Numbered from the whole stretch's first letter, positions 20,457 through 60,875 are shown. The stretch is 60,958 nucleotides of DNA, filler included, from 4 parts of 4 records of this genome joined end to end with filler, not necessarily neighbours in it; one strand, 5' to 3'. Program-made: numbers and translations. Notes: generated by a model from the letters alone, not told the origin.

Positions 20457-20460
20457 ATTA

Positions 20461-30287: not shown

Positions 30288-30329
30288 CTCCTTGATTTTC
30301 CCGGAATTTACAAAATAAATCGTTAAAAA

Positions 30330-31948: not shown

Positions 31949-31950
31949 GA

Positions 31951-32091: not shown

Positions 32092-32092
32092 T

Positions 32093-34594: not shown

Positions 34595-34661
34595 GCTGTG
34601 ACACCTGTGTCTGGAAAGACCACGACCAGATCTATGCCATGGTTTTCTGACCCTTGATTTC

Positions 34662-34715
34662 TTGACAAAAAAAACCATCCCTCCTATAACCCTATACAAT
34701 TTAAATTGTATAGGG
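34662..34715 (+). promoter_or_regulatory. Sigma70 promoter with overlapping 26-bp perfect palindrome (operator)
   Basis: TTGACA (34662-67), 17-nt spacer, TATAAC (34685-90); CCCTATACAATTT|AAATTGTATAGGG at 34690-34715. Confidence 0.75.
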
Positions 34716-34814
34716 GCTGAATCGGTCTTCTGCCCTGACGGCAATATACCTAACGCTCTCCGGCCCTTCGATCAAAAAGGTGGTGAAGCCGCCGAAATTA
34801 AGGGATGAAAACAA

Positions 34815-35258
34815 ATGAAATCCGAATTTACCGACATACACCAAATCATCCCCCATCGCCCCCCCATGGTCATGATTGACCAGTATACGAGGATCAGTGA
34901 GACCGCCGGGAAGGCCATAAAACAATTTTCGGGAAAAAATTACGGATGCGACCGGGGAGTGGTGCTCCAGAGTGTATTGATCGAGTGCACGGCCCAGACC
35001 GTGGCAGCCCACCACGGATATTCGCAGTTAGGGGACCCCGGTAAAAAGCCGGCCATGGGAATGCTGGTGGCAATTGATACCTTTGATTTTTTCCTTCCGG
35101 TACCTGAAGATGGAAAAATCACCATAATCGTTGAAAAGACAGACGAAATTGGCCCCTTTCATCTCATCCGGGGAGAAATCCTCTGCCAGGGAAAACCAAT
35201 GGCCCGGGGCAGGATAAAAATTTTCAACAGCCCCAAAGACGTGGGAGACGGTAAATGA
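34815..35258 (+). CDS. Hotdog-fold 3-hydroxyacyl-ACP dehydratase-like protein (ApeP-like)
   Basis: IPHRPPMVMID and LIECTAQTVAA motifs. Confidence 0.8.
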   Translation: MKSEFTDIHQIIPHRPPMVMIDQYTRISETAGKAIKQFSGKNYGCDRGVVLQSVLIECTAQTVAAHHGYSQLGDPGKKPAMGMLVAIDTFDFFLPVPEDGKITIIVEKTDEIGPFHLIRGEILCQGKPMARGRIKIFNSPKDVGDGK

Positions 35259-35998
35259 TATCTCTTGTCCGGAAAAGTCTTTTCCTGATCTCCATTTTTA
35301 TTCTGGTTCCGGGTCCATTTTTTTTCCCTTTTCAGCGGCCCTGCAGTCAAGGAGCCTTTGCCGGGGAATCAGAGGAAGGCCTATCCATCCCGGAAAAGCG
35401 GCTTGACCAGATCCTCCTGACCACGGAAAAAAATCTCGGCCGTATCAAAACCCTGAAAACCAGGCTGATTCAGGAAAAAAACCTCGCTCTTTTTTCAGAA
35501 CCTGTCCTCTCAAGGGGAATTCTTCTTTTTAAAAAACCGGGCAAAATACGGCTTGAATTTTTCGAACCCTTTCAATCCATCCTAGTGGTCTCCGGAAACA
35601 CCATATCCAAATTTGAGGCATTCAACGGAGAGTGGAAAAAAATGGATTCAGGCAATGAAAAAATAATGGGAATTATTCTCGACCATATTGCCGCATGGAT
35701 CAGCGGCCGGTTCAACCAGGGAAATCTATACAGGGTTTCAGGAAAATACCGACCGGACGGTAAGGGGGAAGCCTTTTCATTGATTCTAGAGCCAAGGGCT
35801 GAGGAGTTCAGACAATTTATCCGGGCCTTTGAACTGGGGATAAATTCGGGCATGGATCGGCTGGATTACATCGTTATCCGGGAGTCTGGAGATGATTATA
35901 CCAGGATAAATTTCCATGAAGACCGGATCAACTATTCTATTAAAGATATTTATTTTGACGGAAGCAGGCAACCCCTGCCACCTGTCCCCCAATGGTAG
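35255..35998 (+). CDS. LolA-like outer-membrane lipoprotein/lipid carrier
   Basis: Signal peptide; QEKNLALFSEPVLSRG...KPGKIRLEF.EP pattern as in LolA-like proteins of aryl-polyene clusters. Confidence 0.75.
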   Translation: MISLVRKSLFLISIFILVPGPFFFPFQRPCSQGAFAGESEEGLSIPEKRLDQILLTTEKNLGRIKTLKTRLIQEKNLALFSEPVLSRGILLFKKPGKIRLEFFEPFQSILVVSGNTISKFEAFNGEWKKMDSGNEKIMGIILDHIAAWISGRFNQGNLYRVSGKYRPDGKGEAFSLILEPRAEEFRQFIRAFELGINSGMDRLDYIVIRESGDDYTRINFHEDRINYSIKDIYFDGSRQPLPPVPQW

Positions 35999-36666
35999 TC
36001 CGGATGAAATCCTTTCTAACCTGTTTATTATTACTCATGGCCCTGGCCGGATGTGCCCATAGGCCACAGATACCGGCACACAATATGGAACCGCCGGGAC
36101 AGACCCGGGTCTTAACAGAACTCCTTTCTGGACAATATCCGGACAGATTCAGCGCCCTTCACCGTGTCGGGCTGAACATCAGGGGAAAGACAATGGTCCT
36201 GAAAGGGTATCTAAAGGTTGACAGGCCCAAAGGAGAGGTCCGCCTCATTGCCCAGGCAGGAATGGGAGGCACCCTTTTTGAGGTTCATATCCTGAACGGC
36301 GCCACGGACATGATATCGGTAAAAGGAGGTTTTAAAAAATCATGGCTTGAAAAATCAGTGGTCAATGATCTAAAGCATCTATACCTTTTGCCCTCTTTTA
36401 CCTCTCCCAGGGCATATGCCGGCCGTGACGGAAACATCATCCTCTACGACAGCCAAAAAGAAAAAACCCGGTCCTATACCTTTACACCGGCAGATGACGG
36501 GGGGCTAAAGGTATCCGGGTATAGGCAGTGGAGGGGCAGCCGTATGGAATACGCCATTGACTATGGCCAGGCCAGCCCCCTGCCCCAATTCATCAAAATC
36601 CAAAATAATTGTTTAAACTACACCCTGGACATTAGTGTCCGTTATATCATGTCCGGGGCAGAATAG
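35992..36666 (+). CDS. Lipoprotein (DUF3261/LolB-like)
   Basis: Lipobox LAGC; C-terminal 'IKIQNNCLNYTLDI'; position next to the LolA-like gene. Confidence 0.6.
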   Translation: MVVRMKSFLTCLLLLMALAGCAHRPQIPAHNMEPPGQTRVLTELLSGQYPDRFSALHRVGLNIRGKTMVLKGYLKVDRPKGEVRLIAQAGMGGTLFEVHILNGATDMISVKGGFKKSWLEKSVVNDLKHLYLLPSFTSPRAYAGRDGNIILYDSQKEKTRSYTFTPADDGGLKVSGYRQWRGSRMEYAIDYGQASPLPQFIKIQNNCLNYTLDISVRYIMSGAE

Positions 36667-36677
36667 GGGTATCACTT

Positions 36678-37070
36678 ATGACGCTTTACACCGATATTCA
36701 AAAATCCAGGCGTTCAATTTCCTGGACCCGGGAGGGGGGGATCTGCGGAGAATTCAATTTTTCCGGAGATCTGGCACTTTTTAAGGGGCATTTTCCGGAA
36801 AAAGCGATTCTACCGGGAATCGCACAGATTGAGATGGTAAAATTCGCCCTTGAAACCATGCTTGAAAAAAGGCTGGTCATCCGGGCCATAACAAAAACCA
36901 AATTTTCACACCTGATTGAACCGGATACCCCTGTCTCTGTCCAGATTAAGTTTCAGTCCCCGGACCGGGAGGATTTTGAGCCTCTGATGACAGCCAGGGC
37001 GGTCATAAAGGCCTCAGGTTCTCCTGCAGGCAGGCTCAACCTTGTTCTTTCAGAATCAGATGCCCGGTAA
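36678..37070 (+). CDS. FabA/FabZ-like dehydratase (ApeI-like)
   Basis: FKGHFPEKAILPGIAQIE motif. Confidence 0.82.
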   Translation: MTLYTDIQKSRRSISWTREGGICGEFNFSGDLALFKGHFPEKAILPGIAQIEMVKFALETMLEKRLVIRAITKTKFSHLIEPDTPVSVQIKFQSPDREDFEPLMTARAVIKASGSPAGRLNLVLSESDAR

Positions 37071-37076
37071 AAGGGC

Positions 37077-37325
37077 TCAGGCCTGCTTTTCCTTCAGCAG
37101 TTCTCCAATGATTCTGTAAACATCTTCCAGGGTCCTCAGCTCCCGGGCATCCTCTTCTTCAATACGAACCCCCAGTTCCTTATCAACCATGACAATGAGG
37201 TCAACCGCATCCAGGCTGTCCAGTCCGATATCCTCATAGAGCAATGCCCCGGGTTTGAGCAGACTGGCATCAATCTCAAATTCCTCTTCCAATACCGAAT
37301 TAACAACCTCTATTATTCTATCCAT
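37077..37325 (-). CDS. Acyl carrier protein
   Basis: Acidic 82 aa; GLDSLD phosphopantetheine motif. Confidence 0.92.
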   Translation of the reverse strand: MDRIIEVVNSVLEEEFEIDASLLKPGALLYEDIGLDSLDAVDLIVMVDKELGVRIEEEDARELRTLEDVYRIIGELLKEKQA

Positions 37326-37373
37326 GAAACCAATACCACTCCTTACCTCTTTCTTAATTTTTCCTAAATTTTC

Positions 37374-37940
37374 CTAAAAATACCGCCCAAAAAGACAAAC
37401 CATTGAATTCTGCCCCCGGTTGGAAGACCCGATACCACCGTTGGACAGATGGTGGAGTCTCACCGCTGCAAAACAGGGAAGCTCCCCTCCCATTTCCATT
37501 CCCACACCGGCCTGGGGATTAAAGTTAAACCGGTAATCCTGACCGCCAACCCTGTAATCCGTATAAATGCCACCGATACCGGCCTCAATATAGGGCCTGA
37601 TCGCCCCATTCTCAAGACCTGTAAGATAATAAAGGGCAAATATATTCATTGATGCATTCAGCCGGATATCCGAATTATCCAGGCGGGATCCCCCAAGGCT
37701 TGCCTCTAGTTTAAACCGGAGGGCAGCCGGCGCTTTGTGGGGCCAAATTTTATCATAATCGTACAATTTAAAAACAGACACCTGGGAAAACCAGCCAGTA
37801 TCAGAAGGATCATAGGTGTATCCGAGATTCAGGGAGACACCGCTCATATCAGGGACATGCTCCCCTCCCTGGGCAGTGGCGGAAAAAACAGACAATACCA
37901 GCAAAAGGGAAAGGATGAACCTTATTCTATTTTTGCCCAT
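37374..37940 (-). CDS. PagL-like / acyloxyacyl hydrolase outer-membrane beta-barrel
   Basis: Signal peptide; PYIEAGIG, FNFNPQAGVG, RLHHLSNGG...N.GQN; C-terminal Phe. Confidence 0.8.
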   Translation of the reverse strand: MGKNRIRFILSLLLVLSVFSATAQGGEHVPDMSGVSLNLGYTYDPSDTGWFSQVSVFKLYDYDKIWPHKAPAALRFKLEASLGGSRLDNSDIRLNASMNIFALYYLTGLENGAIRPYIEAGIGGIYTDYRVGGQDYRFNFNPQAGVGMEMGGELPCFAAVRLHHLSNGGIGSSNRGQNSMVCLFGRYF

Positions 37941-38895
37941 ATTTATCCCACCGGGTAACGGTTACCCGTCCAATGGTCCCGTCCGCTCCCTGCTTCAGGC
38001 AGCAGACCCTTTCTCCTCCCTGGCCTCCGGAAAATGCCGCCAGGGCATCCATGGCTGTGTCTGTAGGGGAAAAGGCCATTCTCCGCTTCCAAACCCTTTT
38101 TCCTCCACCCATTGGTTTTCCCTTATTCCCGACCTCCCGGGACGGTATGGACGAAGGGGAAAAAAAGATATCTGAACGGCCCGGACTGTCCATGTTCCGC
38201 CCCATGGAAATCTCTTCAAAAAAGCCGTACTTAGGCCGGGCTCCCTCCCGGGTCACCATAAAGAAAGCAGCCCCTTCTCCAAATGAACAGGGAGCCTTAT
38301 CATAGTCCTTGGAAAACCTTTGAATACAATATTCCATAACCTGGCACCATTCATCTGAAGTCCCCACCAGCACAGCATCGGCCTGTCCCGTTTCAAGCCA
38401 GGTTCCGGCAGTAACAAGAGCTGAAATAAAAGACATGTCAAACTGGCTTACGGTGAGGCAGGGCCCTGTGATCCCGTAACAGATGGAAATATGGGCGGCA
38501 GCGGCATTGTGAACGGAATTGGAAAAATGGGTGGGGGCAGCCAGCCGGTCCCCCTTTTCAATATATGAATCCAGAAAAGAGAAGGTGGATCCCAGTGCGC
38601 CGTATCCGGTGGCAATAATCAGCCCTGTATTTTCCCGGGATGCCAAAGAGGTTTTTGAGTCTTCCAGGGCCCGGCCCGCAGCCAGCAGGGCCATCCGGGA
38701 ATAATGGTCCACACGGCGGAGCCTTGATTTCGGGACAAACCGGGTCAGATCTGATGTTTGCGCCCTGAACAGGTCATCCCCGGCGGGCGGGATCAGATCG
38801 TCTCCGTCCCCACTGGTCCGGTAAACAGCCCCCATTTTTTCAGGGCAGCCATCAAAAGGGCTTGCAGCCCCTATGCCGTGTACCGCCAGCTTCAG
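37927..38895 (-). CDS. Ketosynthase-like chain-length factor (no catalytic Cys), probable CTG start
   Basis: LRRVDHYSRMAL and PTHFSNSVHNA motifs; Cys position replaced (TVSQFDMSF). In-frame KLAVHGIG upstream of ATG 38835 follows GGAGG-N7-CTG. Confidence 0.8.
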   Translation of the reverse strand: MKLAVHGIGAASPFDGCPEKMGAVYRTSGDGDDLIPPAGDDLFRAQTSDLTRFVPKSRLRRVDHYSRMALLAAGRALEDSKTSLASRENTGLIIATGYGALGSTFSFLDSYIEKGDRLAAPTHFSNSVHNAAAAHISICYGITGPCLTVSQFDMSFISALVTAGTWLETGQADAVLVGTSDEWCQVMEYCIQRFSKDYDKAPCSFGEGAAFFMVTREGARPKYGFFEEISMGRNMDSPGRSDIFFSPSSIPSREVGNKGKPMGGGKRVWKRRMAFSPTDTAMDALAAFSGGQGGERVCCLKQGADGTIGRVTVTRWDKYGQK

Positions 38896-38897
38896 GG

Positions 38898-39164
38898 TTA
38901 CACCTCCTGGGCATCGGTCCGGCGTTCCCGGACAAAATCCGCCAGGGTGTTAATGGACTGCAGAGCCGGACGGCCCTCCTCAATATTTTTAATTTCAACA
39001 CCAAAATAAATCTGGAGCTGAACCACCAGCTCAACGGCATCCAGGGAATCCAGCCCCATCCCCTCGCCGAACAGGGGTGCATCGTCTGCTATTTCCTCGG
39101 GGGTGAGATCCTCAATCTGCATCTCTTGGATGATCATCTCTTTTAATTCATACTTTAAATCCAT
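38898..39164 (-). CDS. Acyl carrier protein (ApeE-like)
   Basis: APLFGEGMGLDSLDAVELV motif. Confidence 0.92.
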   Translation of the reverse strand: MDLKYELKEMIIQEMQIEDLTPEEIADDAPLFGEGMGLDSLDAVELVVQLQIYFGVEIKNIEEGRPALQSINTLADFVRERRTDAQEV

Positions 39165-39439
39165 CTTCTTCCTTACAAGCTTGGTTAAAAATCGTTTAAC
39201 ATATCACTATTCTTTTCCCCTATCAATGCAGGGATCTGTTCATTTTATCAAATTGCCAATTCATAAAATCGTAAGCAACTGCTATCAGATTGATCTGCCG
39301 GTAACAAGCATTATTTCCCCGGCCATTATAATTCGGTCAGAACAGGACAAAGGGAGAGCAGGCAGAACTAAGTCTTGACTTGATATAGGACCAAAGTATA
39401 AAAGCAGGTACCTTTTAAAACTTAGAAAAGGAGGAAAAA

Positions 39440-40213
39440 ATGTATCCTAAACGTCTAGGAAAATTTTTTTATTCTATTTGTATTGCCTTCTGCCTGATGG
39501 CTGTAATGGCCGGTTCGGCAGTATCGGGACAGGCAGAGGATGCTAAAAAATATATGGAAATGCTGGAGTCCGACAGCACGAGAACCCGGACAGATGCAGC
39601 CAAGTATATCACCCGGTCAGGACTGACAGACCCGGTATTATTTGAGACCGTTAAAACAAAATTGCTCACAGGATACACCCATAACCAATTGAACGCCAAA
39701 CATATGGACGAAATGGCCTGGTACTGCAAGGCCCTTGCCTCTTCAGGCAATTTCGCCTATGAAGAGACCCTGAGGAAGGTGGCCCGGACCACCACCAGTG
39801 AAAAGCTGAAACGCCACTGCCGTCAGAGCATTGATCAGATCCCGGTCCATGCAAAACGGAATAAGGTCATTCAAGAGGGAATGGCCGGGGATAAGAGTCT
39901 CTCGTCCAGAGAAAATAAAATGATCGCCATGTTCCGGTCCAAGGATCCTGCGCTCATGCGGGATGCCGCCAAAATGACCTACCGGAATCCATTTTCAGGA
40001 AAGGCCGTTCCCGATGTGATCAGTGAGGAATTGTTAAATGCCTGCCCCCTTACCTCGGGCAACAGGATAATGACCGATGCCCTGTCATGGATGTGCAAGG
40101 CCCTGGGTGCCTCGGGAAATCCCAAGTACCGGGCAACCCTGACCGAGGTTATTGAAATAAGCACCAGTGAAAAACTGAAAAAATATGCGAGGAAAAGCCT
40201 GGCCATGCTCTAA
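39440..40213 (+). CDS. Secreted alpha-helical protein with two internal repeats
   Basis: Signal peptide; repeated DAAK...D..[AS]W.CKAL..SGN..Y..TL..V...TSEKLK; AAGGAGG RBS. Confidence 0.75.
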   Translation: MYPKRLGKFFYSICIAFCLMAVMAGSAVSGQAEDAKKYMEMLESDSTRTRTDAAKYITRSGLTDPVLFETVKTKLLTGYTHNQLNAKHMDEMAWYCKALASSGNFAYEETLRKVARTTTSEKLKRHCRQSIDQIPVHAKRNKVIQEGMAGDKSLSSRENKMIAMFRSKDPALMRDAAKMTYRNPFSGKAVPDVISEELLNACPLTSGNRIMTDALSWMCKALGASGNPKYRATLTEVIEISTSEKLKKYARKSLAML

Positions 40214-40272
40214 CCGGCCCTCAATCCAAGGCGAACTTTCCCGGAAGACGGACCGAAAAACCAGGAACAGCA

Positions 40273-41649
40273 ATGACAAAGCCCCCCAAGGGGCAGGCGA
40301 GCAACCTGCCCCTTTTAAATAATTTTTTCCCCCAGGCCCCGGAACTGCAATTTGCATCCTTGGACGAAATCAAAATTGCCCAGACGCGGCTATTCATGGA
40401 CCACCTATCCTATACCTTTTCCCGTTCCCCCTTTTACAGGGATCGATATAAGGCCGCAGGAATTGATATCAAAAAAATCCGGCAGCTTTCAGACCTGGAA
40501 CTCCTGCCCCTGACCACCAAGACAGACCTGGAAGCCAGCCAAAGCCTGTGTTCTGCGGATCCAAAAGATATCGCAGACATCTGCCTGACCTCCGGGACAT
40601 CAGGGTCAACCGCCACCATGATTCCCCTCACGGGCCGGGACCTGTCCAGGCTGGCATACAACGAGGAAGTCGCCCTTGCCATGGCCGGGATAAACGCCTC
40701 GGACACCCTTGTGGTCTGTGCAGCCCTGGACCGCTGCTTCATGGCAGGTCTGGCCTATTTCCTGGGGGGCGCCAAACTATCCGCAGCCATGGTCAGGGCG
40801 GGATCCGGGTCTGCGGCCCAGCAATGGGAGTTGATCCGGCGGACCAATGCCACAGCCATTGTGGGCGTCCCCTCCCTGATGCATAAAATAGGGCAGTTTG
40901 CCATTGAACAGGGCAAGAGCCCTTCAGACTCAAGTATCCGAAAACTCATTGCCATTGGAGAGCCGACCAGGGACAGGGAGCTCAACCTGCTCCCCATATC
41001 CAGAGAGCTTGAAACCATGTGGGATGCAAAGATATTCTCCACCTATGCATCCTCGGAAATGGCCACCACCTTCTGCGAGTGCGAAACCAGAAAAGGCGGT
41101 CATATCAGACCTGAACTGATTATAGTTGAAATCCTCGATGACCGGGGCCGGCCATTGCCCGAAGGAGAAACAGGGGAGGTGGTGGTCACCCCCCTTGGGG
41201 TTACGGGAATGCCTTTGATCCGGTTTCGGACCGGGGATCTTTCCTATATTATCCCGGAGCCTTGCCCCTGCGGCAGGACCACACAGCGGCTGGCCCCTGT
41301 GATCGGCCGAAAAAACCAGATGCTCAAGTATAAGGGGACCACCCTTTTTCCCAATGCCGTCCTCGCCTGCCTGGAAGGAGATCCACGGTTTCATGGGGGA
41401 TATGTTGAGGCCAGGCAGAATCCCGACGGCACTGACCGGGTGATTCTTTTTGCCGCACTTGCAGGGAATCCGGCACCGGAAACGGCATCATGGATGAAAG
41501 AGCAGCTCCGGGCCTCATTGAGAGTTGTCCCGGAAATCAGGCTTATCTCGCAAAAACAGGCGGATACAAAGGTCTATCAATTCAACCGAAAGCGGAAACG
41601 GCTCACCTTTTTTGATCTCAGACAAATCCAAAGACAAGGAAGATTATGA
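40273..41649 (+). CDS. Phenylacetate--CoA ligase family (aryl-acid adenylation enzyme)
   Basis: TSGTSG, YASSE, MPLIRFRTGD and CPCGR motifs. Confidence 0.88.
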   Translation: MTKPPKGQASNLPLLNNFFPQAPELQFASLDEIKIAQTRLFMDHLSYTFSRSPFYRDRYKAAGIDIKKIRQLSDLELLPLTTKTDLEASQSLCSADPKDIADICLTSGTSGSTATMIPLTGRDLSRLAYNEEVALAMAGINASDTLVVCAALDRCFMAGLAYFLGGAKLSAAMVRAGSGSAAQQWELIRRTNATAIVGVPSLMHKIGQFAIEQGKSPSDSSIRKLIAIGEPTRDRELNLLPISRELETMWDAKIFSTYASSEMATTFCECETRKGGHIRPELIIVEILDDRGRPLPEGETGEVVVTPLGVTGMPLIRFRTGDLSYIIPEPCPCGRTTQRLAPVIGRKNQMLKYKGTTLFPNAVLACLEGDPRFHGGYVEARQNPDGTDRVILFAALAGNPAPETASWMKEQLRASLRVVPEIRLISQKQADTKVYQFNRKRKRLTFFDLRQIQRQGRL

Positions 41650-43244
41650 CCGACGATAAGGACAGAGTGATACTCACCGGCAGCGACCTGGGTTTCAAGG
41701 ATATCGTTGCAGTGGGAATCGGGGATAAAAAGATAGACCTGGATCCCGGCGCCCTTGAGATATGCCGGGCGTCCAGAGACTTTCTGGATGCCGCAGTCAA
41801 AGAGAAAAAAATCATCTACGGGGTCAACACCTCATTCGGCCCCATGTGCAATAAGATCATCAATGACAAGGAGATAGAGACCCTTCAGAACAACCTCATT
41901 GTCAGCCATGCCGCCGGCCTGGGCACACCAATTCTCCCCTATATTGCCACCGGTATTATGGTCATACGGCTCAACACCCTGGTAAAGGGGCATTCAGGGG
42001 TCAGAATCCGGCTGCTCACCCTGATGCGGGATATGATCAATAAGGGTATTGCCCCCTATATCCCGGAATGCGGAAGTGTGGGGGCATCGGGAGACCTTAT
42101 CCATCTGGCCCACATGTCCCTGGCCATCATCGGCAAAGGAAAGGTCTATTATAAAAATGAACTCATACCGGCAGAACAGGCACTCAAAAAGGCAGGCATT
42201 GCCCCCCTTACCCTGAGCTATAAAGAGGGACTGGCTCTGATGAACGGAACAGCCGCCATGACAGGGATCGCCGCCTTCACCCTTTTCGGGGCATCCAAAT
42301 TATTGAATATCGCCTGTGTGAATGCCGCCTTTGCCGTTGAGATTTTCGGCGGGATTGACGATGCCTTTGACCCGGATCTTCACCGGGTCAAACCCCACCC
42401 CGGGCAGGTGGCCGTGGCAGCCACCATTAAAAAACTTTACCGGGGAACAGGCAATATCACCCAGAGGGAGGACCTCCATCAGCGGATCCGGAAACAGGGA
42501 AATGGAGACACCCCTGTATTTGAGACGGATATCAATGTCCAGGATGTCTATTCCATCCGGTGCACCCCCCAGATTCTGGCCCCTGTGAAAGAAGCCCTGG
42601 ACTATGCCGTAACCGTGGTGGAGACAGAGGCAAACTCCACCAATGACAACCCCATTATTATTGCGGAAAAGCGAAAAATCCTCCACGGCGGCAATTTCCA
42701 CGGCCAGAGCATCAGCTTTGCCATGGACAGTCTCTGCATTGCCATGTCCACCCTGTGCAACCTCTCGGAACGGCGGACCAACAAGCTTCTGGACAAACAC
42801 CTCAACGAAGGGCTTCCGGAACACCTGATCCCCGGAGAAACCGGCCTGACCATGGGCTTTATGGGGGCCCAATACCTTGCCACCTCAGCCACGGCTGAAA
42901 ACCGGAACCTGGCCGGCCCCATGAGCGTAAACTCCATCTCCTGCAATGCCACCAACCAGGATGTGGTCTCCATGGGCACGGTGGCGGCCAGAAAGGCCTT
43001 CCGCCTGATCAGCCATGCCAAACATGTGGTCACCCTGGAGGTGCTGGCAGATCTCCAGGCCCTGTCATTCAGGAATTCAGGCAGACTGGGCACCGCCACG
43101 GGCAGGATCTACCAAATCCTGAACCGGGAATTTAAGGTCTATGACAATACCACCATTTTCCATGACAGCCTGGTGAAATTCAGGAAATTATTGTTTTCAA
43201 GCCAGATATTCGACGATTTATCCCTGTATTGGAAGGACGTTTAA
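41646..43244 (+). CDS. MIO-dependent aromatic amino acid ammonia-lyase (HAL/TAL/PAL family)
   Basis: YGVNTSFG, GSVGASGDL (MIO ASG), KEGLALMNGT, QDVYSIRC, NDNP, GGNFHG and NQDVVSMG motifs. Confidence 0.93.
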   Translation: MTDDKDRVILTGSDLGFKDIVAVGIGDKKIDLDPGALEICRASRDFLDAAVKEKKIIYGVNTSFGPMCNKIINDKEIETLQNNLIVSHAAGLGTPILPYIATGIMVIRLNTLVKGHSGVRIRLLTLMRDMINKGIAPYIPECGSVGASGDLIHLAHMSLAIIGKGKVYYKNELIPAEQALKKAGIAPLTLSYKEGLALMNGTAAMTGIAAFTLFGASKLLNIACVNAAFAVEIFGGIDDAFDPDLHRVKPHPGQVAVAATIKKLYRGTGNITQREDLHQRIRKQGNGDTPVFETDINVQDVYSIRCTPQILAPVKEALDYAVTVVETEANSTNDNPIIIAEKRKILHGGNFHGQSISFAMDSLCIAMSTLCNLSERRTNKLLDKHLNEGLPEHLIPGETGLTMGFMGAQYLATSATAENRNLAGPMSVNSISCNATNQDVVSMGTVAARKAFRLISHAKHVVTLEVLADLQALSFRNSGRLGTATGRIYQILNREFKVYDNTTIFHDSLVKFRKLLFSSQIFDDLSLYWKDV

Positions 43245-43252
43245 CCAGAGAC

Positions 43253-46502: not shown

Positions 46503-46511
46503 GCCGGACCA

Positions 46512-51675: not shown

Positions 51676-51685
51676 AGGAGTTTCA

Positions 51686-52432: not shown

Positions 52433-52440
52433 GAGAGACT

Positions 52441-53673: not shown

Positions 53674-54482
53674 TGTACACCTATTACACACAACGGCTGC
53701 GGCACAATTCCGGGAAATCGCTGTTCCTTTTGGTCATGAATTTTTTCCTGATCCTATCGCTTGCCCTGTGGACCCTGGCCGGCCTTATTCTCTTTCCCCT
53801 GGCTTTTCTGGTACTAAGATACCCGGGCAGACGGTCCACCCCCTGGATTACCAGATGGTGCATCTGGATTTACGGACGGGTATGGCAATTGTTCACCCGG
53901 CTCTTTGTGATTTTCGAGCCCCTCCAATATGATGCCGCACAGTTTAAGACCCCGGGAATCATTGTGGTAAACCACCGGTCGTTTTTCGATACCTATTGCA
54001 TGAATATGCTCCCTGTCTCCGATGTCTGTTTCGCCGTCAGAGACTGGCCGTTTCACATTCCAATATACAATCTTTTCATGGAAAAGGCCGCCTATATGAA
54101 CATTGAAAAATTTTCCTGGGAAACTTGCCTGTCCCGGGCGAAACAAACCCTTGCCCGCAAGGGTTTTGTCCTTTTTTTCCCCGAAGGTCACAGAAGCCAG
54201 ACCAGGGAAATGACCCGGTTTTATTCAGGCGCCTTTAAGATGGCGGTTGAAACCCGAACCCCCATCATCCCGGTCTGCCTCACCGGCACCCAGGACCTGC
54301 TTCCCCCGGGGCGCCGTTTTATGGCCCCGGCCAGGATTAAAATGAAGGTTCTGGATCCTGTATACCCTGAGGAATTTTCAGGGGAAATGAAACACCAGGC
54401 CATGAAAAAAAGAGTAAAGGAAACCATGGCCCGGGAGCTGGCATCCATGGATGCAATTGAAATAACGACTGTGGAAAATTAA
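53673..54482 (+). CDS. Lysophospholipid acyltransferase (PlsC-like)
   Basis: NHRSFFD (HxxxxD) and FFPEGHRS motifs. Confidence 0.88.
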   Translation: MYTYYTQRLRHNSGKSLFLLVMNFFLILSLALWTLAGLILFPLAFLVLRYPGRRSTPWITRWCIWIYGRVWQLFTRLFVIFEPLQYDAAQFKTPGIIVVNHRSFFDTYCMNMLPVSDVCFAVRDWPFHIPIYNLFMEKAAYMNIEKFSWETCLSRAKQTLARKGFVLFFPEGHRSQTREMTRFYSGAFKMAVETRTPIIPVCLTGTQDLLPPGRRFMAPARIKMKVLDPVYPEEFSGEMKHQAMKKRVKETMARELASMDAIEITTVEN

Positions 54483-54493
54483 AGGCGCCTCCA

Positions 54494-54952
54494 ATGAAAA
54501 AGCCCTATTTCAAACTATCACCGGATGCCCCGTCTCCCCTGCGGGGGAGTGTCAAACGACGTATCCGTTTCCAGGAGGTGGATATGCTCACCATTGCCTG
54601 GCACGGCCATTATACCAGTTTTTTTGAAGATGCCCGGGTGGAACTGGGGGACCGATATCAAATCGGCTATATGGATTTTTACAACCACGGCATTTTGGCT
54701 CCGGTTAAAACCGCCCATGTGGATTTTATCCGCCCCTTAAAATTCAAAGATGAAATCACCATAGAAGGAATCTTCCACTATTCCGATGCTGCCAGGCTCA
54801 ACAGCGAGTATATCATCAGGAATCCCAAAGGAAAGATTGCAGCAACCGGATATATCGTCCAGATGATGCTGGACACGGATTATCATCTGTTTTTAACCCA
54901 GCCTGAATACCTCAAAGAATTCTGCCGCCGGTGGAAAACCGGACAATTGTAA
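54494..54952 (+). CDS. 4HBT/YbgC-family acyl thioesterase
   Basis: FQEVDMLTIAWHGHYTSFFEDAR motif. Confidence 0.87.
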   Translation: MKKPYFKLSPDAPSPLRGSVKRRIRFQEVDMLTIAWHGHYTSFFEDARVELGDRYQIGYMDFYNHGILAPVKTAHVDFIRPLKFKDEITIEGIFHYSDAARLNSEYIIRNPKGKIAATGYIVQMMLDTDYHLFLTQPEYLKEFCRRWKTGQL

Positions 54953-56052
54953 TGACCCGGGTTTTTATTACAGAGGCAAGGGTGATCACCGCCCTGGGCC
55001 GGGGCCTGGATAGATTATATCGCAGACTCCTTGACGGAAAAAGAGGCTTTTCCAAGGTGGATCGGTTTGACACAACCCCCTATGTCAGTTCCCATGCAGG
55101 CCTCATTCCGGACCTTTATTCCCCAATCGCCACTGAAACATCTGCCGTCATAACCCTGGCCGAAAAACTTATGGAGGATCCATGGCAAATGGACCGGACA
55201 GGGCTGCTGATCACCGCCTCAACCAAGGCTGGGATTGATCTGATGGAACAGGGCTCGGAATTTCCCGTATCCGGCCTGCCGGGGCGCCTGGCCCGGGAGC
55301 TTGGCCTGGAACGGCCCGGGTTCAATATCAATGCAGCCTGCGCCTCATCGACCATTGCCATTGCCAAGGCCGCAGACCTGATAAGCCGGGGAAGGGAAAA
55401 GACAGTTTTCATCATTGCCCTGGACCTGGTCTCTGAATTTGTATTTTCTGGTTTTTCCGCCATCGGTGCCATGGCACCGGATCCGGCCCGGCCCTTTGAC
55501 AAAAACCGCCAAGGTTTAACCCTGGGAGAGGGAGCAGCCTTCCTGGCCCTTACCAATGAAGAAAGCCTTAAAGACCGGCCGGCACTGGCGGAACTCAAAG
55601 GATGGGGCATCGCAGGGGACGCCGCCCACCTGACCGCACCGGACAGAAACGCCACGGGCCTGAAATCAGCCGTTGTCAAAGCCTGCAAAATAGGAAATAC
55701 AGCACCAGAAAAAATCAGGGCCATTAATACCCACGGTACCGGAACGGTTTATAACGATGCAATGGAGCTGACGGCCATACATGAGCTTTTTCCGGACACC
55801 GTCATGGCCAACTCCATAAAGGGGAGTGTCGGCCATACATTGGGCGCTGCCGGGGCCATTGAAACCGCCCTGTGCATCAAGCTTCTGGAAAAAAGAATAC
55901 TGCCGGGAACAACGGGACTGAACACACCTGTCCAAGGGGCCGCCCCCCTTTTCAGCACCCAAAACCGGGAATTTGAAAAAGGGCCGGTTTTAACAACAAA
56001 CTCGGGTTTCGGTGGGATTAATGCCGCCCTTATCCTTGGGGATGTCCAATGA
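54952..56052 (+). CDS. Beta-ketoacyl-ACP synthase (Cys-His-His)
   Basis: NAACASS, NTHGTGT, GHTLGAAG and SGFGG motifs; TAATG coupling. Confidence 0.9.
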   Translation: MTRVFITEARVITALGRGLDRLYRRLLDGKRGFSKVDRFDTTPYVSSHAGLIPDLYSPIATETSAVITLAEKLMEDPWQMDRTGLLITASTKAGIDLMEQGSEFPVSGLPGRLARELGLERPGFNINAACASSTIAIAKAADLISRGREKTVFIIALDLVSEFVFSGFSAIGAMAPDPARPFDKNRQGLTLGEGAAFLALTNEESLKDRPALAELKGWGIAGDAAHLTAPDRNATGLKSAVVKACKIGNTAPEKIRAINTHGTGTVYNDAMELTAIHELFPDTVMANSIKGSVGHTLGAAGAIETALCIKLLEKRILPGTTGLNTPVQGAAPLFSTQNREFEKGPVLTTNSGFGGINAALILGDVQ

Positions 56053-56768
56053 AATTGTCTGTCACCATCAAAGGAATGGGATGGGTATCCCCCGAATCAA
56101 TGGGCCGGCCCGGCCATATCCGAAAATTCGACACCCCGGAAGAAAGCGCCGGGCTTTCAGGAAAATCCGTGCTTGGGACCCCCTATAAACCCTTTGGCCG
56201 AATGGACCACTTCTCCAAACTGGGATTCTCCGCCATTGCCTTTGCCATGGCCGATGCAAAAATATCCCCGGTGAAAAGGGAAGACAGCTCCGGGAGAACA
56301 AGGGAAACCGCCCTCATTGCTGAGTCCCGGTCCGGATGTATAGAAACGGACCGCCTCTACCAGGCCACCCTGTCCCGGACCGGCACCCGTCTGCCCAGCC
56401 CGGCCCTGTTCGCCTACACCCTTCCATCCTGTTTTCTGGGAGAGGCGGCCATTTACTACGGCCTCACCGGAGAGTCCTATATGATTGAAGAAACCACCGG
56501 CTCTGGTCTCACAGCCCTTGATTCTGCCATGGACTGCCTGGACAGAGGCGGTTATGAATCAGCGGTCTGCGGTATCTGCAATTCAGATCCGGTTCCCGGG
56601 GCATTTTTTATGGTTCTTGAATCCATGGCATCCGGGACCCAAGCCGGCCCCCGGGTCATCACAAGGGATGAAAACGGCCGGTTCTATTTTGAAACCCACC
56701 ATATCAGTCACCTGGCCGGCCTTGTATTGTGCAATGCCGGCCAGGACGCCCATAAGGAAAATATATGA
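56049..56768 (+). CDS. Short ketosynthase N-terminal-domain / chain-length-factor-like protein
   Basis: FGRMDHFSKLG and PSPALFAYTLP motifs; no catalytic Cys motif. Confidence 0.75.
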   Translation: MKLSVTIKGMGWVSPESMGRPGHIRKFDTPEESAGLSGKSVLGTPYKPFGRMDHFSKLGFSAIAFAMADAKISPVKREDSSGRTRETALIAESRSGCIETDRLYQATLSRTGTRLPSPALFAYTLPSCFLGEAAIYYGLTGESYMIEETTGSGLTALDSAMDCLDRGGYESAVCGICNSDPVPGAFFMVLESMASGTQAGPRVITRDENGRFYFETHHISHLAGLVLCNAGQDAHKENI

Positions 56769-58024
56769 AGATACAATTGGTATACCCCACCTGGCCCAAG
56801 CTTGAAAAACAGACCGAGTTCCACCTGCCCCCCCACGGACCCGTGGTATTTGCCGCCTCCCTTCCCGAAGACGTTGAGGTGGATTTCATTGATGAAAATG
56901 TCCAGACCTTTTGTTTTGATACAAATGCCGACCTCATCGGCATCTCGGTAATGCTTACCTGCCAGCTTCCCAGGGCATTTGAAATCGCCGATGAATACCG
57001 GCGGATGGGCCGCCCGGTCATGTTCGGCGGCATTGCCGTCATGCTCCATTCCGAAGAAGTCAGGCAACACGGAGACAGTGTTTTTCTCGGCGAAGCCGAA
57101 GGACGCATGGAGCAGGTGATCCGGGACTTTAAAAACGGAGAGCTTCAGCCGGTTTACGATTATATGAACAATTTCCCTGACATCAACAGCGTGGGAACGG
57201 CCCGCCGGGAAATTCTGGACAGGGAGTGCTACAATTACAGGGGGACCCAGATGCTGGATCTGGTCCACGCCTCCAGGGGATGCCGGTTCAATTGCTTTCC
57301 CTGCTGCAACGGATTTCTGGGCGGACGGCAGTTCAGGCCCCGGCCGGTTAAAAAAGTCATCCAAGAGATGGAAGACATCCCCAACAACCGGCTCTTTGTG
57401 GTGGACAATTCCCTGGCCCATGACAAGGAGTGGCTCATCGAACTGTTCACGGCCATGAAACCGTTGAAAAAAAAATGGGTCTCCCATCCCCTCCTGGATG
57501 ATGAAGAGGTGGTAAAACTGGCGGCAGAAGCCGGGTGCTGGTATGTTTACCAGGCTGTTTTCGATACCTCCGACACCATCAGGAACCGGATACAGCGCCT
57601 CCATGACCACGGCATCGGTGTGGAAGGTACAATCCTTCTGGGCACCGACGACCATGACGAAACCTATATCCGGAACCTGGTTGAATTCTTAACAAAAATC
57701 AAGTTGGATATGGCCGAATTCACCATCCTCACCCCCTTTCCCAAATCCCCCATCAGAAAAAAACTGAAAAACCAGGGCCGTATCTTCAATAATAACTGGC
57801 TGGACTACACCTGCGGAAAAGCGGTATTCCAGCCCAGACAGCTTACCCCTGAAAAGCTGGAAGAACTTTACAACTGGGCCTGGGACACCTTTTACCAGGA
57901 TGGGGGCTACCAGACCAAGATGGGGGAATTGTTTTTCAAAGTCATTAAACGGGAAATCATGGACGGGACCTACCGGCGGTACAATCCCAGAAAAAAACGG
58001 TCTTTTAAAAAGGCCAGGGCCTGA
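56765..58024 (+). CDS. B12-binding-domain radical SAM protein
   Basis: N-terminal cobalamin-binding region (GISV...VMFGG...GEAE); RGCRFNCFPC CxxxCxxC. Confidence 0.9.
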   Translation: MKIQLVYPTWPKLEKQTEFHLPPHGPVVFAASLPEDVEVDFIDENVQTFCFDTNADLIGISVMLTCQLPRAFEIADEYRRMGRPVMFGGIAVMLHSEEVRQHGDSVFLGEAEGRMEQVIRDFKNGELQPVYDYMNNFPDINSVGTARREILDRECYNYRGTQMLDLVHASRGCRFNCFPCCNGFLGGRQFRPRPVKKVIQEMEDIPNNRLFVVDNSLAHDKEWLIELFTAMKPLKKKWVSHPLLDDEEVVKLAAEAGCWYVYQAVFDTSDTIRNRIQRLHDHGIGVEGTILLGTDDHDETYIRNLVEFLTKIKLDMAEFTILTPFPKSPIRKKLKNQGRIFNNNWLDYTCGKAVFQPRQLTPEKLEELYNWAWDTFYQDGGYQTKMGELFFKVIKREIMDGTYRRYNPRKKRSFKKARA

Positions 58025-58025
58025 G

Positions 58026-59414
58026 ATGAGCCGAATACTGCTGATATCGGCCAACACCAATACAGACCCCATACCGGTCTATCCCCTGGGCATGGCATTG
58101 GTGGATGCCGCCCTTTGCAGCCAGGGCCATGAAACAGAACAATTTGATATCCTCTTTGACAGGGAGGGCGGGGAATCAAAGGGCATCCGAAAAGTGATCA
58201 CCTCATTTAACCCTGATATTGTGGGGATTTCCGTACGGAATATCGACGATGTGGACTCCATGTCCAAAAAAAACAATTGGTATCTGTCATGCCTGAAATC
58301 CCTTGTGACAGATATCCGCAGAATACAAAAGGTACCCGTGGTCCTGGGAGGGCCGGCCGTTTCCATTATGCCCGAGACCATCCTTGACTATTCCGGGGCA
58401 GACCACTGCGTTGTGGGAGAGGGAGAAACCGCCTTTAATCTATTGATCGAAAAAATCATCCGCCAGAAAAATCCGCCAAAAATTATGGGCCCCCTGGCCC
58501 CCAGGATGACAACCAAGGAATTTTACAGACCTGGCTACAAAAAAGAGCTGGTGAATTTTTATATAGACCAGAGCGGTATGGTCAACTACCAGACCAAAAG
58601 GGGTTGCCCCTTTGGTTGTAATTATTGTTCCTACCCTCTCATCGAGGGACACAAGTTCAGGTTTCAGAACCCGGACTCCGTGATCGAAGATCTAAAACAG
58701 CTGAAAACCGATTTTAATGTCCCTTCCCTCTTTTTCACGGATTCCGTATTTAACGATCCCGGGGGGCGGTATCTGGAATTAGCCGAGGCCATGATTAGGG
58801 CGGAACTGGGCATAAAATGGGCCGCCTATTTCAGGCCGGATGATATCCCCCCCCAGGACCTTGCACTGCTCCGGCGGTCCGGGCTCTACGCCATGGAGGT
58901 CGGCTCGGATGCGGCCTGCGACACCACCCTGGCCGGCATCGGCAAAAATTTTGATTTCAACCGGGTCAGGGCGTTTAATGAGGCCTGTATCAAAGCCCAA
59001 ATTCCCTGTGCCCATTTTTTTATGTTCGGCGGCCCCGGGGAGACACCGGCCACTGTCCAGGAGGGGCTGGCCAATATTGAAGCACTTGAAAAAACGGTGG
59101 TATTTGTATTTTCCGGTATCCGAATCCTGCCCAAGACCGGGCTTGCGGAGACTGCTGTCAGCCAAGGGATAATCTCCCCCCATGACAGCCTCATAAAACC
59201 CAGTTACTATATTGCCCCGGGACTGGACAAGGGTAAAATGGACCGAAAAATCGAAACGGCCTTTTTCAGGAGAAAAGACAGATTCTTTCCCCCGGAAAAA
59301 GGCCAGATCCGGATGAAGGCCCTCCGGGTATTCGGATTTAAGGGCCTGCTCTGGGATATGATCCTTAAAACAGCCCCTGCCAGAAAACGGCCCCGGGTAA
59401 AAAAAGCCATATGA
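58026..59414 (+). CDS. Lipid-biosynthesis B12-binding radical SAM protein (TIGR04072-like)
   Basis: PVYPLG, GISVRNIDD, LGGPAVS, GEGE, KRGCPFGCNYCSYP and FTDSVFN motifs. Confidence 0.88.
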   Translation: MSRILLISANTNTDPIPVYPLGMALVDAALCSQGHETEQFDILFDREGGESKGIRKVITSFNPDIVGISVRNIDDVDSMSKKNNWYLSCLKSLVTDIRRIQKVPVVLGGPAVSIMPETILDYSGADHCVVGEGETAFNLLIEKIIRQKNPPKIMGPLAPRMTTKEFYRPGYKKELVNFYIDQSGMVNYQTKRGCPFGCNYCSYPLIEGHKFRFQNPDSVIEDLKQLKTDFNVPSLFFTDSVFNDPGGRYLELAEAMIRAELGIKWAAYFRPDDIPPQDLALLRRSGLYAMEVGSDAACDTTLAGIGKNFDFNRVRAFNEACIKAQIPCAHFFMFGGPGETPATVQEGLANIEALEKTVVFVFSGIRILPKTGLAETAVSQGIISPHDSLIKPSYYIAPGLDKGKMDRKIETAFFRRKDRFFPPEKGQIRMKALRVFGFKGLLWDMILKTAPARKRPRVKKAI

Positions 59415-59426
59415 AAAAACAAGCCC

Positions 59427-60875
59427 ATGGAACCCCCTAACAGCATATTATTGGTTCACCCCCTGGGGTATACACCGGAAAAAGCCGGTAGAGATGTGTC
59501 CCGCATGGCCAATATCATGCCCCCCCTGGGGCTTGTGAGCATGGCAGCCGTCCTGGACAGTAAAACCATTCCCAACCATGTGATCGATTGTTATTGCCAT
59601 CCGGATTCGGAAACCATGATCCTGGATTACATAAAAGAGAAATCACCCGGTTTTTTGGGATTCTCCTGCACCACGTCCTCCTTTTTGGACGGCATCTGTA
59701 TATCAGAAAGGGTCAAGGCAAAATTTCCCGATATCAGGGTAGTGTTCGGCGGGGCCCATGTTTCTGCCCTGGGAAAATCTTTGATGGAAAAATTTACGGT
59801 CATTGATTACCTGGTCATCGGTGAGGGGGAAGCCACCCTCACGGAACTGGTTGCGGCAGGACAGAATGATATCTCCAAGATACAGGGCCTGGTATACCGT
59901 GATGCAGGCGGAAAGGCCGTATTCACCGGCTTCAGAAAACGGCTGCTGGATCTGGACAGCCTTCCCTTCCCGGCCTATAATAAACTGGCCGGCTATCCCA
60001 AGGCCTATAAACTACCCATTTTCAATTATCCCAGGGTGCCCAATGCAAGCTGCATCTCATCCAGGGGATGCCCCTATGCCTGTTCCTATTGTGACAGATC
60101 TGTTTTCAGGCGGACCTTCAGGTATAATTCAGCCGAATATCTCTTTTCCCATCTGGCATATCTGAACCGGGAATTCGGCATTCGGCACATCAACTTTTAT
60201 GATGACCAGTTCACTTTTAACCGAAAAAGGGTGGAAGCCTTCTGCAGAAAAATGATTCGAAAAAAACTGGGGATGACATTCAATTGTGCGGCACGGGCCG
60301 AGCACCTTGATTTTGATCTTTTAAGGCTGATGAAGGCCGCAGGGTGCTGGATGATCAGCCTGGGGGTGGAAACCGGAGATCCTGACCTTCTGGCCCAGCA
60401 CCGGCAGAACCCGGATCTCAATATGATCCGGGAAAAAATCATCCTCATCAAAAGGGCGGGGATCCGGGTTAAGGCGCTACTCATGATGGGCCTGCCAGGA
60501 GAGACCCGGGCCAGCATAAAAAAGAGCAAGGAATATGTATTTTCCCTGCCCATTGATGATTTCAACCTTTCAAAATTCACCCCCTTTCCAGGCTCTCCCA
60601 TCTACGAAAAAATAAAGGCACCAGGCTCCGACCTGGGCCGCTTTGATGAACGCTGGGAAAAAATGGACTGCATGGACTTTTGTTTTATCCCTAAAAACAT
60701 GACCCGTGAAGGTTTGGACGAATTGTTCATTGATTTTTATAAAAGCCATTTTCAACGGATCCCCGTGCTGGCCGGATACCTGACCATGGCCTGGAAATCC
60801 CCGGACTCCTGGAAGCGGCTGATCAAGGACCTTTACGGCTTTGTCTCCTTTGCCAAGCAGAACCGGAGGATGTGA
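59427..60875 (+). CDS. B12-binding-domain radical SAM protein (class B methyltransferase-like)
   Basis: PPLGL, FGGAH, GEGE, SRGCPYACSYC, DDQF, GVETG, GLPGET and PFPGS motifs. Confidence 0.9.
   Translation: MEPPNSILLVHPLGYTPEKAGRDVSRMANIMPPLGLVSMAAVLDSKTIPNHVIDCYCHPDSETMILDYIKEKSPGFLGFSCTTSSFLDGICISERVKAKFPDIRVVFGGAHVSALGKSLMEKFTVIDYLVIGEGEATLTELVAAGQNDISKIQGLVYRDAGGKAVFTGFRKRLLDLDSLPFPAYNKLAGYPKAYKLPIFNYPRVPNASCISSRGCPYACSYCDRSVFRRTFRYNSAEYLFSHLAYLNREFGIRHINFYDDQFTFNRKRVEAFCRKMIRKKLGMTFNCAARAEHLDFDLLRLMKAAGCWMISLGVETGDPDLLAQHRQNPDLNMIREKIILIKRAGIRVKALLMMGLPGETRASIKKSKEYVFSLPIDDFNLSKFTPFPGSPIYEKIKAPGSDLGRFDERWEKMDCMDFCFIPKNMTREGLDELFIDFYKSHFQRIPVLAGYLTMAWKSPDSWKRLIKDLYGFVSFAKQNRRM

Follow-up and report, generated by a model that had tools for sequence, protein, structure and literature searches.

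A contig at positions 34595-60958 of the DNA analyzed here (a window of 60,958 nt, in which four contigs stand end to end) carries a cluster of 26 genes, g01 to g26, at 34815-60875. We consider it probable, at roughly 60%, that these genes form a complete aryl polyene lipid (APEL)-type cluster, with type II polyketide synthase/fatty acid synthase enzymes, from a Desulfobacteraceae-like bacterium, that the cluster belongs to a subfamily bearing radical S-adenosylmethionine (SAM) enzymes ("ladderane-type"), and that it works by the pathway proposed below. The analysis suggests that the most likely product would be an APEL-like lipid that contains a polyene primed by coumarate, undergoes radical SAM tailoring and reaches the outer membrane by export. 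Homology and conserved linkage are the basis of the general scheme; the starter and the chemistry of the radical SAM enzymes are inferences.

Relationship to the aryl polyene clusters

Open reading frame (ORF) listing combined with Pfam and NCBIfam searches gave the 26 genes, with g01-g04 on the plus strand, g05-g08 on the minus strand and g09-g26 on the plus strand. As the reference we used the ape cluster of Escherichia coli CFT073 (NC_004431, 1143727-1158748; 18 genes), and BLASTP was run in both directions at E 1e-3. The results revealed reciprocal best hits to ape genes for ten window genes: the ketosynthase (KS) g17 (50458-51675) with ApeR (42% identity, E 2e-106), the ketoreductase (KR) g18 (51686-52432) with ApeQ (44%), the KS g14 (45318-46502) with ApeO (35%), the 4HBT thioesterase g21 (54494-54952) with ApeK (33%), the dehydratase g04 (36678-37070) with ApeI (35%), the acyl carrier proteins (ACPs) g05 (37077-37325) and g08 (38898-39164), both PP-binding proteins, with ApeF (45%) and ApeE (41%), respectively, and, weakly, the MMPL/RND exporter g15 (46512-48953; Pfam MMPL; HpnN-like, 127.7 bits) with ApeM (19-21%). 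ApeJ was paired with two genes, its N-terminal part with the family 2 glycosyltransferase (GT2)/DUF2062 protein g12 (43229-44416; 32%) and its C-terminal part with the LpxL-like acyltransferase g13 (44413-45321; Lip_A_acyltrans, 29.7 bits; 26%). E. coli ApeJ (L146, 10213-11889) is a GT2/LpxL-like fusion, and g12 and g13 are adjacent, separate genes (43229-45321) here and in most relatives. These hits, together with the Flx models that head the NCBIfam matches of g02, g10 and g18, bear out the aryl polyene/flexirubin-like core named in the preliminary description of this DNA, and all the functions listed there were found again with Pfam and NCBIfam.

The cluster is not gene-for-gene orthologous to the characterized ape cluster. 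Several other ape functions have replacements of the same fold or superfamily. These are the LolA-like carrier g02 (35255-35998; ApeL analogue), which scored 36.2 bits, over the cut-off, with Pfam LolA and 75.7 bits (cut-off 125) with NCBIfam LolA2_flexi; the lipoprotein g03 (35992-36666; ApeN analogue; lipobox LAGC); the PlsC-type acyltransferase g20 (53673-54482; ApeD analogue; PF01553, 72 bits); the Cys-less, chain-length factor (CLF)-like proteins g07 (37927-38835) and g23 (56049-56768); and the hotdog-fold protein g01 (34815-35258; ApeP analogue). The AlphaFold2 model of g03 (pLDDT 63.6) had LolB as its top fold matches (8cm1, E 2e-6; 9tpm, TMq 0.59), which would lend moderate support to a LolB-like fold. 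Two hotdog dehydratases had been described earlier; g04 indeed passed the cut-off of the ApeI-like family (PF22818, 32.9 bits against 28.5), but g01 was weakly FabZ-like (28.6 bits against a cut-off of 113). The g01 protein had no match in Pfam or in a sequence search of the PDB, and its link to ApeP is indirect, through g01-like ORFs in three relatives that E. coli ApeP matches.

The ape core according to Grammbitter 2020 consists of apeO, R, E, F, C, I, P, Q and M. ApeO- and ApeR-type KSs, two ACPs, an ApeI-like dehydratase, an ApeQ-like KR and an ApeM-type RND exporter are all present here; g07 and g23 stand for ApeC, though without BLASTP similarity to it, and g01 stands for ApeP. Shared with the ape clusters of CFT073 and Xenorhabdus doucetiae are thus the KS types, a Cys-less partner, two ACPs, KR, ApeI-like dehydratase and thioesterase, the GT2 plus acyltransferase, and the export set of MMPL, LolA-like and LolB-like proteins. 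ApeA, ApeB, ApeG and an ApeH-type ligase are absent, neither BLASTP nor tBLASTN giving a match in the window to an ApeH-type adenylating enzyme or the ApeB ring methyltransferase, and the starter would instead be made by an in-cluster 4-methylideneimidazole-5-one (MIO) lyase and a PaaK/FlxY-type ligase. The additions relative to ape are a second KS/CLF pair, a FabB-like KS, a CrtI-like flavoprotein, three B12-type radical SAM enzymes, a PagL-like barrel and the HEAT-like g09, and a PlsC-type protein replaces a detectable ApeD.

Proposed pathway

The structure of APEL has been solved (Grammbitter 2020). It has a glycerol-phosphate-N-acetylgalactosamine backbone; the ApeE-carried aryl polyene is esterified onto the sugar by ApeJ, the ApeF-carried 26:5 conjugated 3-hydroxy acyl chain is placed by ApeD, the ring is methylated by ApeB, and the lipid is exported by ApeM, ApeL and ApeN (Grammbitter 2020). 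For the cluster described here, we propose that g11 would deaminate an aromatic amino acid, most likely tyrosine, to an acrylic acid (p-coumarate), which g10 would activate and use to prime an ACP. Elongation would be carried out by the KS/CLF pairs g14/g07 and g22/g23, the ApeR-like g17, the KR g18 and the dehydratases g04 and g01, yielding conjugated polyene chains on the ApeE-like g08 and the ApeF-like g05. The chains are expected to be conjugated because no family assigned as an enoyl reductase was found by Pfam and NCBIfam among the 26 genes; g18 also matches Pfam adh_short_C2, whose title mentions enoyl-ACP reductase, and NCBIfam reads it as FabG/FlxB (FlxB 324.6 bits, cut-off 340).

The FabB-like g19 (52441-53673) would help to build a second, long conjugated acyl chain, and the three B12-type radical SAM enzymes (g24-g26), together with the CrtI-like g16 (48950-50461), would tailor the ACP-bound intermediate. 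The latter is a CrtI/CrtD-like FAD flavoprotein (Amino_oxidase, NAD_binding_8) scoring 95 bits, under the cut-off, with the CrtD model. The PlsC-like g20, the GT2 g12 and the LpxL-like g13 may then attach the chains to a glycerophospho-sugar anchor in the manner of ApeD and ApeJ, and the MMPL protein g15, the LolA-like g02 and the LolB-like g03 would carry the lipid to the outer membrane, the predicted site of the PagL-like beta-barrel g06 (37374-37940; Pfam PagL, 63 bits, cut-off 23). The proposed route would depart from the APEL scheme in its flexirubin-style priming, in its duplicated KS/CLF pair with an added FabB-like KS, and in a radical SAM/flavoprotein set that would replace the methyltransferase.

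Conservation of the cluster in relatives

A search of species-representative genomes with g25 returned 17 loci (41-68% identity), all from Desulfobacterales-type metagenome-assembled genomes (Desulfobacter, Desulfobacula, Desulfobacterium and one Desulfobulbaceae), in keeping with the Desulfobacteraceae-like host that had been suggested for this DNA. The order g16-g17-g18-g19-g20-g21-g22-g23-g24-g25 was the same in 9/9 loci reaching 10 kb upstream, and g24 was present in 16/17, the exception (L004) beginning 126 nt before g25. At 59-87% identity in relatives, g24 was the best conserved protein of the cluster. In an uncultured Desulfobacter (G001, 4.45-Mb contig), all 26 genes were collinear with those of the window at 44-86% identity, and the ORFs before g01 and after g26 lay on the opposite strand, so that the cluster is very probably complete in the window. 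A second genome (G002) was collinear from g10 to g26, with no trace of g01-g09 in the 18.6 kb upstream.

The family TIGR04072, to which g25 belongs, was found over its cut-off in 55/301 genomes sampled from the phylum of G001 and in 0/14 control genomes. The rarity implied by the preliminary description was thus not borne out, and genome miners label the family "ladderane". Up to 40 kb was fetched around 40 of the 57 over-cut-off hits and around G001, the omitted hits being of the lower tier. The upper tier (at least 565 bits) comprised 19 loci, of which 12 had at least 25 kb fetched ("long" loci), and the lower tier (360-426 bits) comprised 22. Among the 19 upper-tier and the 12 long loci, respectively, g24 was present in 18 and 11, g23 in 16 and 10, g22 in 15 and 11, g21 in 16 and 11, g12 in 15 and 11, g08 in 14 and 12, g26 in 12 and 9, g17 in 10 and 10, g16 and g19 each in 9 and 9, g10 in 6 and 5, g11 in 2 and 2, and g09 in 1 and 1. 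The block g21-g22-g23-g24-g25 recurred in 15-18 of the 19 upper-tier loci, with g23 adjoining g22 in 16/19. The upper-tier gene set was constant and its blocks were reshuffled among genomes, two of them being recurrent: g04-g21-g22-g23-g24-g25-(g26)-g12-g13-g08-g14-g07-g06 and g18-g19-g16-g17-g05-g20-(g10-g11)-g01-g02-g15. Far from being a one-off, the cluster is a genuine and complete representative of a known, uncharacterized family, and it is well conserved.

The lower-tier loci had ACP (17/22), KR (14/22), GT2 (13/22) and several radical SAM genes; g22 was found in 1/22, g23 in 0/22 and g15 in 5/22. Judged by gene content, they are a different, smaller kind of cluster. Its representatives (L108-L109, L114-L117, L120-L121, L124-L125, L128-L131) lack the APE export genes and combine GT2, ACP, thioesterase and KR genes with a single KS, to which a CLF is sometimes added, and with three to four B12-type radical SAM genes whose proteins share about 30-35% identity with g24 and g25.

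The starter module

The ligase g10 (40273-41649) is of the FlxY/PaaK aryl acid-CoA type, with FlxY as its top model (439.5 bits, cut-off 520) and PaaK-type ligases next (143-158 bits); BLASTP gave no match between g10 and ApeH. The adjoining g11 (41646-43244) is an MIO aromatic amino-acid ammonia-lyase (PF00221, 551 bits). Its NCBIfam equivalogs all fell under their cut-offs: histidine ammonia-lyase (subfamily) 502 bits (cut-off 524), hutH 486 (539), Phe aminomutase 466 (800), FlxA 458 (700) and Tyr aminomutase 435 (501). The closest solved relative of g11 was the tyrosine aminomutase SgTAM (330 bits). Aligned with SgTAM, g11 keeps the ASG MIO motif, Tyr63 and Ser92-His93, and has Tyr at Tyr415 and Pro at Glu71. 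We take His93 and Tyr415 of SgTAM to be phenol-binding and Glu71 to be required for its mutase activity. With these roles assumed, the Tyr at Tyr415, the retained His93 and the Pro at Glu71 would point to a tyrosine ammonia-lyase.

An orthologue of g11 stood at the matching distance in 5/5 genomes tested (80-86% identity). The residues at the SgTAM sites were identical in these five cluster-linked orthologues and different in three paralogues elsewhere in the same genomes. Separate lyase paralogues, 35-37% identical, were present elsewhere in five Desulfobacteraceae genomes. The second lyase-family paralogues of the Desulfobacteraceae genomes (L023, L024 and L025) have Thr-Ser-Gly, not Ala-Ser-Gly, at the MIO site, and their selectivity pair is Ser-Val or Ser-Ile.

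Ketosynthases and chain-length factors

Alignment showed an intact Cys-His-His triad in four KSs, namely g14, g17, g19 and g22 (54931-56052). The other two KS-like proteins, g07 (302 aa) and g23 (239 aa), are shortened and Cys-less; g07 has Asp-Met replacing the Cys and matched the ketoacyl-synt N-domain only. A KS tree of 46 rows took in the four window KSs, E. coli ApeO, ApeR, FabB and FabF, and, from 10 of the 41 genomes fetched, every high-scoring segment pair with at least 70% query cover. Each window KS fell in a clade of its own type: g22 (10 rows, support 100/99), g14 (11 rows, 100/100), g19 (8 rows, 100/99; sister to E. coli FabB at 97/94) and g17 (12 rows including E. coli ApeR, 100/99). 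Of the ApeO and ApeR comparisons suggested earlier for a KS phylogeny, the one with ApeR was clear-cut, but E. coli ApeO sat on a long branch and its position was unresolved. Housekeeping FabB/FabF was ruled out as an identity for g19 and g22, each of which lies in its own cluster-linked clade.

The closest solved structure for both g14 and g22 was 9s5h_B (204 and 159 bits), followed by 6qsp (ApeO-like), which we take to be Xenorhabdus ApeO, and 6kxd (the ishigamide KS). Entry 9s5h contains two different KS-like chains and is probably the anammox amxFabF2/amxFabFmut heterodimer of a 2026 preprint, whose text gives no PDB code.

The radical SAM enzymes

All three B12-domain radical SAM proteins, g24 (56765-58024), g25 (58026-59414) and g26 (59427-60875), keep the CxxxCxxC motif. 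C173, C177 and C180 of g24 were invariant across 32 sequences, and the three cysteines of the g25 type across 28. The g24 protein matched the B12-binding domain at 39.6 bits, over the cut-off; its model (pLDDT 90.3) superposed best on AprD4, a radical diol dehydratase (TMq 0.79), then on MgmA and TsrM, and a PDB search by sequence returned 9ccb alone (E 0.003). To our knowledge, the solved AprD4 holds no cobalamin. A TIGR04072 ("rSAM_ladder_B12") score of 614.2 bits places g25 well over the cut-off of 360; its next-best models were BzaD (184 bits) and the TsrM family (116 bits), and its closest solved relative was TsrM (6wte, E 7e-25). Both BzaD and TsrM are cobalamin enzymes that methylate aromatic carbon. 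The third protein, g26, matched the HpnJ (174.5 bits), BchE (166 bits) and ApyD models, all under their cut-offs, and the PDB search gave AprD4 (2e-26) and TokK (1e-14). Across the upper-tier loci, g24 was conserved at 59-84% identity versus 38-65% for g25.

No conventional methyltransferase is present among the cluster genes, and an ApeB-like gene was found in 0/12 long upper-tier loci. As a guess from sequence similarity, the TsrM/BzaD-like g25 may carry out a C-methylation that replaces the absent ApeB. Since g10 and g11 are optional in the relatives and g21-g25 are fixed, the radical SAM cassette would be independent of this starter, which argues that its substrate is the chain and not this particular head group. 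Our literature search found no paper joining an aryl polyene with cobalamin radical SAM enzymes.

Comparison with flexirubin and ladderane-type clusters

With the flexirubin clusters of Bacteroidota, the cluster shares priming by a Tyr-ammonia-lyase-type and a FlxY-type enzyme, a FlxB-like KR and a LolA2-like carrier as top models, none of the Flx equivalogs being over its cut-off. No DarA/DarB-type dialkylresorcinol enzyme was found among the Pfam and NCBIfam matches of the 26 proteins. We know of no radical SAM genes in flexirubin clusters.

The preliminary description had likened the set of B12 radical SAM, CrtI-like and ligase genes to an island shared by Kuenenia and Desulfotalea, and the comparison holds at the level of gene families. 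The accessible text of Rattray 2009 reports synteny between Kuenenia (kuste3335-3352) and Desulfotalea (DP1853-1860) of SAM-radical, phytoene-dehydrogenase-like, phenylacetyl-CoA-ligase, glycosyltransferase and FabF genes. The remaining members of that list stand in one locus here, as g16, g14/g17/g19/g22 with g07/g23, g10 and g12, together with the TIGR04072 member g25. Compared by published description, the cluster shares with the ladderane-type clusters a TIGR04072 enzyme, an adjacent second radical SAM enzyme, a phytoene-desaturase-like flavoprotein, divergent FabF/FabB paralogues including Cys-less ones, a PaaK-like ligase and a glycosyltransferase. It differs in that these genes lie within a complete APE-type cluster for export and assembly, which has its own ammonia-lyase. 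Anammox Cluster I (KustE3603-3608), as far as its description is accessible, is a compact six-gene unit with a full-length FabFmut, whereas g07 and g23 are shortened.

The Desulfobulbaceae locus L017 has the layout KS-ACP-PlsC-ligase...g09-like...g24-like-g25-like-GT2. The g09 protein (39440-40213), which had been absent from the earlier gene list, is a secreted HEAT-like repeat protein with a signal-like N-terminus and an internal repeat (two HEAT-like repeats; atlas lead "HEAT repeat", 0.96), with homologues in G001 (51%) and L017 (39%) only. It may be the "new membrane protein" that figures in the synteny of Rattray 2009. According to the accessible text of a Cariaco Basin study, antiSMASH "ladderane" biosynthetic gene clusters occur in Desulfobacterota and eight other named lineages, with function unknown. 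The corresponding parts of a 2026 review and of the 2026 preprint describe the radical SAM role as unknown even in anammox bacteria, and an anammox paper in GBE (2025) is silent on these genes.

Alternative readings

Several observations weigh against a coumarate-primed, APEL-like lipid made in the manner proposed. Nine products of the ape cluster (ApeA, B, C, D, G, H, L, N and P) had no BLASTP match at E 1e-3. The top equivalog score of g11 is that of histidine ammonia-lyase, with every lyase and Flx equivalog under its cut-off, and the Ser-His selectivity pair presumably occurs in histidine ammonia-lyases too. Orthologues of g11 and g10 occur in just 2 and 5 of the 12 long upper-tier loci, and this optional status makes methylation of the aryl ring by g25 less plausible. 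The best-conserved radical SAM protein, g24, appears from its model to be most like AprD4, a radical dehydratase and not a methylase. The accessible literature gives no chemistry for any member of the subfamily. A starter other than p-coumarate is conceivable, though we think it unlikely: g11 would then be a His or Phe ammonia-lyase or a 2,3-aminomutase, and the primer urocanate, cinnamate or a beta-amino acid. The ranking of the sub-cut-off scores (histidine ammonia-lyase at 502 and 486 bits, then Phe aminomutase at 466), an aminomutase as closest solved relative, and a Ser-His pair in place of the His-Leu that we take to be the selectivity pair of RsTAL all fit such a primer. They are met by the Tyr and His at the presumed phenol-binding sites, by the Pro at the presumed mutase Glu71, by a FlxY-like partner ligase, and by the separate lyase paralogues that five Desulfobacteraceae genomes hold elsewhere.

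Two further readings concern the radical SAM cassette, and we regard both as improbable. In one, g22-g26 and the CrtI-like g16 would form C-C bonds by radical chemistry (cyclization or cross-linking) on a polyene-ACP and yield a ladderane-related or ring-bearing lipid. The membership of g25 in TIGR04072, the resemblance of g26 to the ring-forming or ring-contracting BchE and HpnJ, and the proximity of g14 and g22 to 9s5h_B, probably an anammox protein, all lean that way, as does the combination of KS/CLF, a phytoene dehydrogenase-like flavoprotein and B12 radical SAM enzymes in the accessible description of anammox Cluster I. However, Rattray 2009 detected no ladderanes in Desulfotalea, which has a related locus, the literature as far as accessible holds no experiment tying the anammox enzymes to cyclobutane formation, and the family occurs in 55/301 genomes sampled from a phylum for which ring lipids are not known. 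In the other reading, two pathways are neighbours: an ordinary aryl polyene lipid would be made beside radical SAM enzymes that modify membrane fatty acids, for instance by mid-chain methyl branching. The acid 10-methyl-16:0 is known in Desulfobacter and anammox bacteria. Such a division would suit the shuffling of blocks between genomes, the lower-tier loci that keep ACP, KR, GT2 and radical SAM genes without most APE genes, and the FabB-like character of g19. It fits poorly with the position of g24/g25 inside the APE-like set, directly after thioesterase, KS and CLF in 11/12 long upper-tier loci, or with translational coupling across the supposed border, where g23 and g24 overlap by 4 nt and g24 and g25 lie 1 nt apart; moreover, one known O2-independent route to 10-methyl acids dispenses with radical SAM enzymes.

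Gene layout and the remainder of the window

The gene packing is operon-like. With the listed ORF starts (g25 taken at 58026), same-strand neighbours are spaced by -142 to +62 nt, and with likelier starts most genes adjoin across short gaps or overlap by 1-4 nt. For g13 (44290), g14 (45291), g16 (48812), g19 (52369) and g25 (57900), the start of the longest ORF probably lies too early, likelier starts behind sequence resembling a ribosome-binding site being 44413, 45318, 48950, 52441 and 58026, respectively. No cobalamin riboswitch was detected, Rfam giving no match on 34595-60958. Promoter-like and terminator-like signals in 34595-40400 (4 and 9) were not above those in shuffled sequences (6.2 and 9.9).

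The window contains 264 N, all within three artificial linkers of the form N44-TTAATTAATTAA-N44 at 16241-16340, 26569-26668 and 34495-34594, the last being the left boundary of the contig of the cluster. Piece 1 (1-16240, about 40% GC) carries archaeal-type genes, piece 2 (16341-26568, about 54% GC) bacterial genes, and piece 3 (26669-34494, about 38% GC, all on the minus strand) is phage-like; piece 4 (34595-60958, about 52% GC) holds the cluster on its own contig. The threonyl-tRNA synthetase (ThrRS) of piece 1 has an archaeal editing domain (NF003068, 947 bits) and is only 26-28% identical to the ThrRS of five Desulfobacteraceae genomes, so the source bin looks like a mixture of an archaeon and a bacterium. 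Piece 1 also encodes a PRK13795 phosphoadenosine-phosphosulfate reductase/ferredoxin fusion (1032 bits), a UbiA-type prenyltransferase and ThiI. Piece 2 has a sigma-54 two-component pair, a DUF6627 protein adjoining a C39-peptidase/TPR protein, a PhzF-family isomerase, an amino-acid permease and an acetamidase/formamidase-like gene, with no link to the cluster. PHROGs matches in piece 3 were to large terminase, portal, head-morphogenesis and Lar-like proteins. ORFs crossing linkers, e.g., 26613-28013 and 34701-35015 (both minus), are artefacts. The left flank was ruled out as genomic context of the cluster and is unusable for host inference, because it belongs to other contigs across the linkers.

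Implications

Anaerobes commonly carry ladderane-type radical SAM clusters, a family that has been without an assigned product since 2009. The cluster described here is a single-contig, 26-gene example that maps to the solved APEL pathway and has relatives in complete Desulfobacter-type genomes; the clear correspondence to APEL and these close relatives make the question experimentally approachable. The relatives show which part is fixed (g21-g25) and which is optional (the ammonia-lyase). A bolder view, which we hold to be quite unlikely, is that in sulfate reducers the fixed cassette thioesterase-KS-CLF-radical SAM-radical SAM(-radical SAM) and the CrtI-like flavoprotein jointly carry out radical C-C chemistry on a polyene bound to an ACP, and that the cassette is a sister or ancestor of the anammox ladderane machinery. 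If so, the Desulfobacter product, once solved, would reveal the function of the anammox B12 radical SAM enzyme, and a new class of polyene lipids, bearing rings or heavily C-methylated, would come to light in anaerobes.

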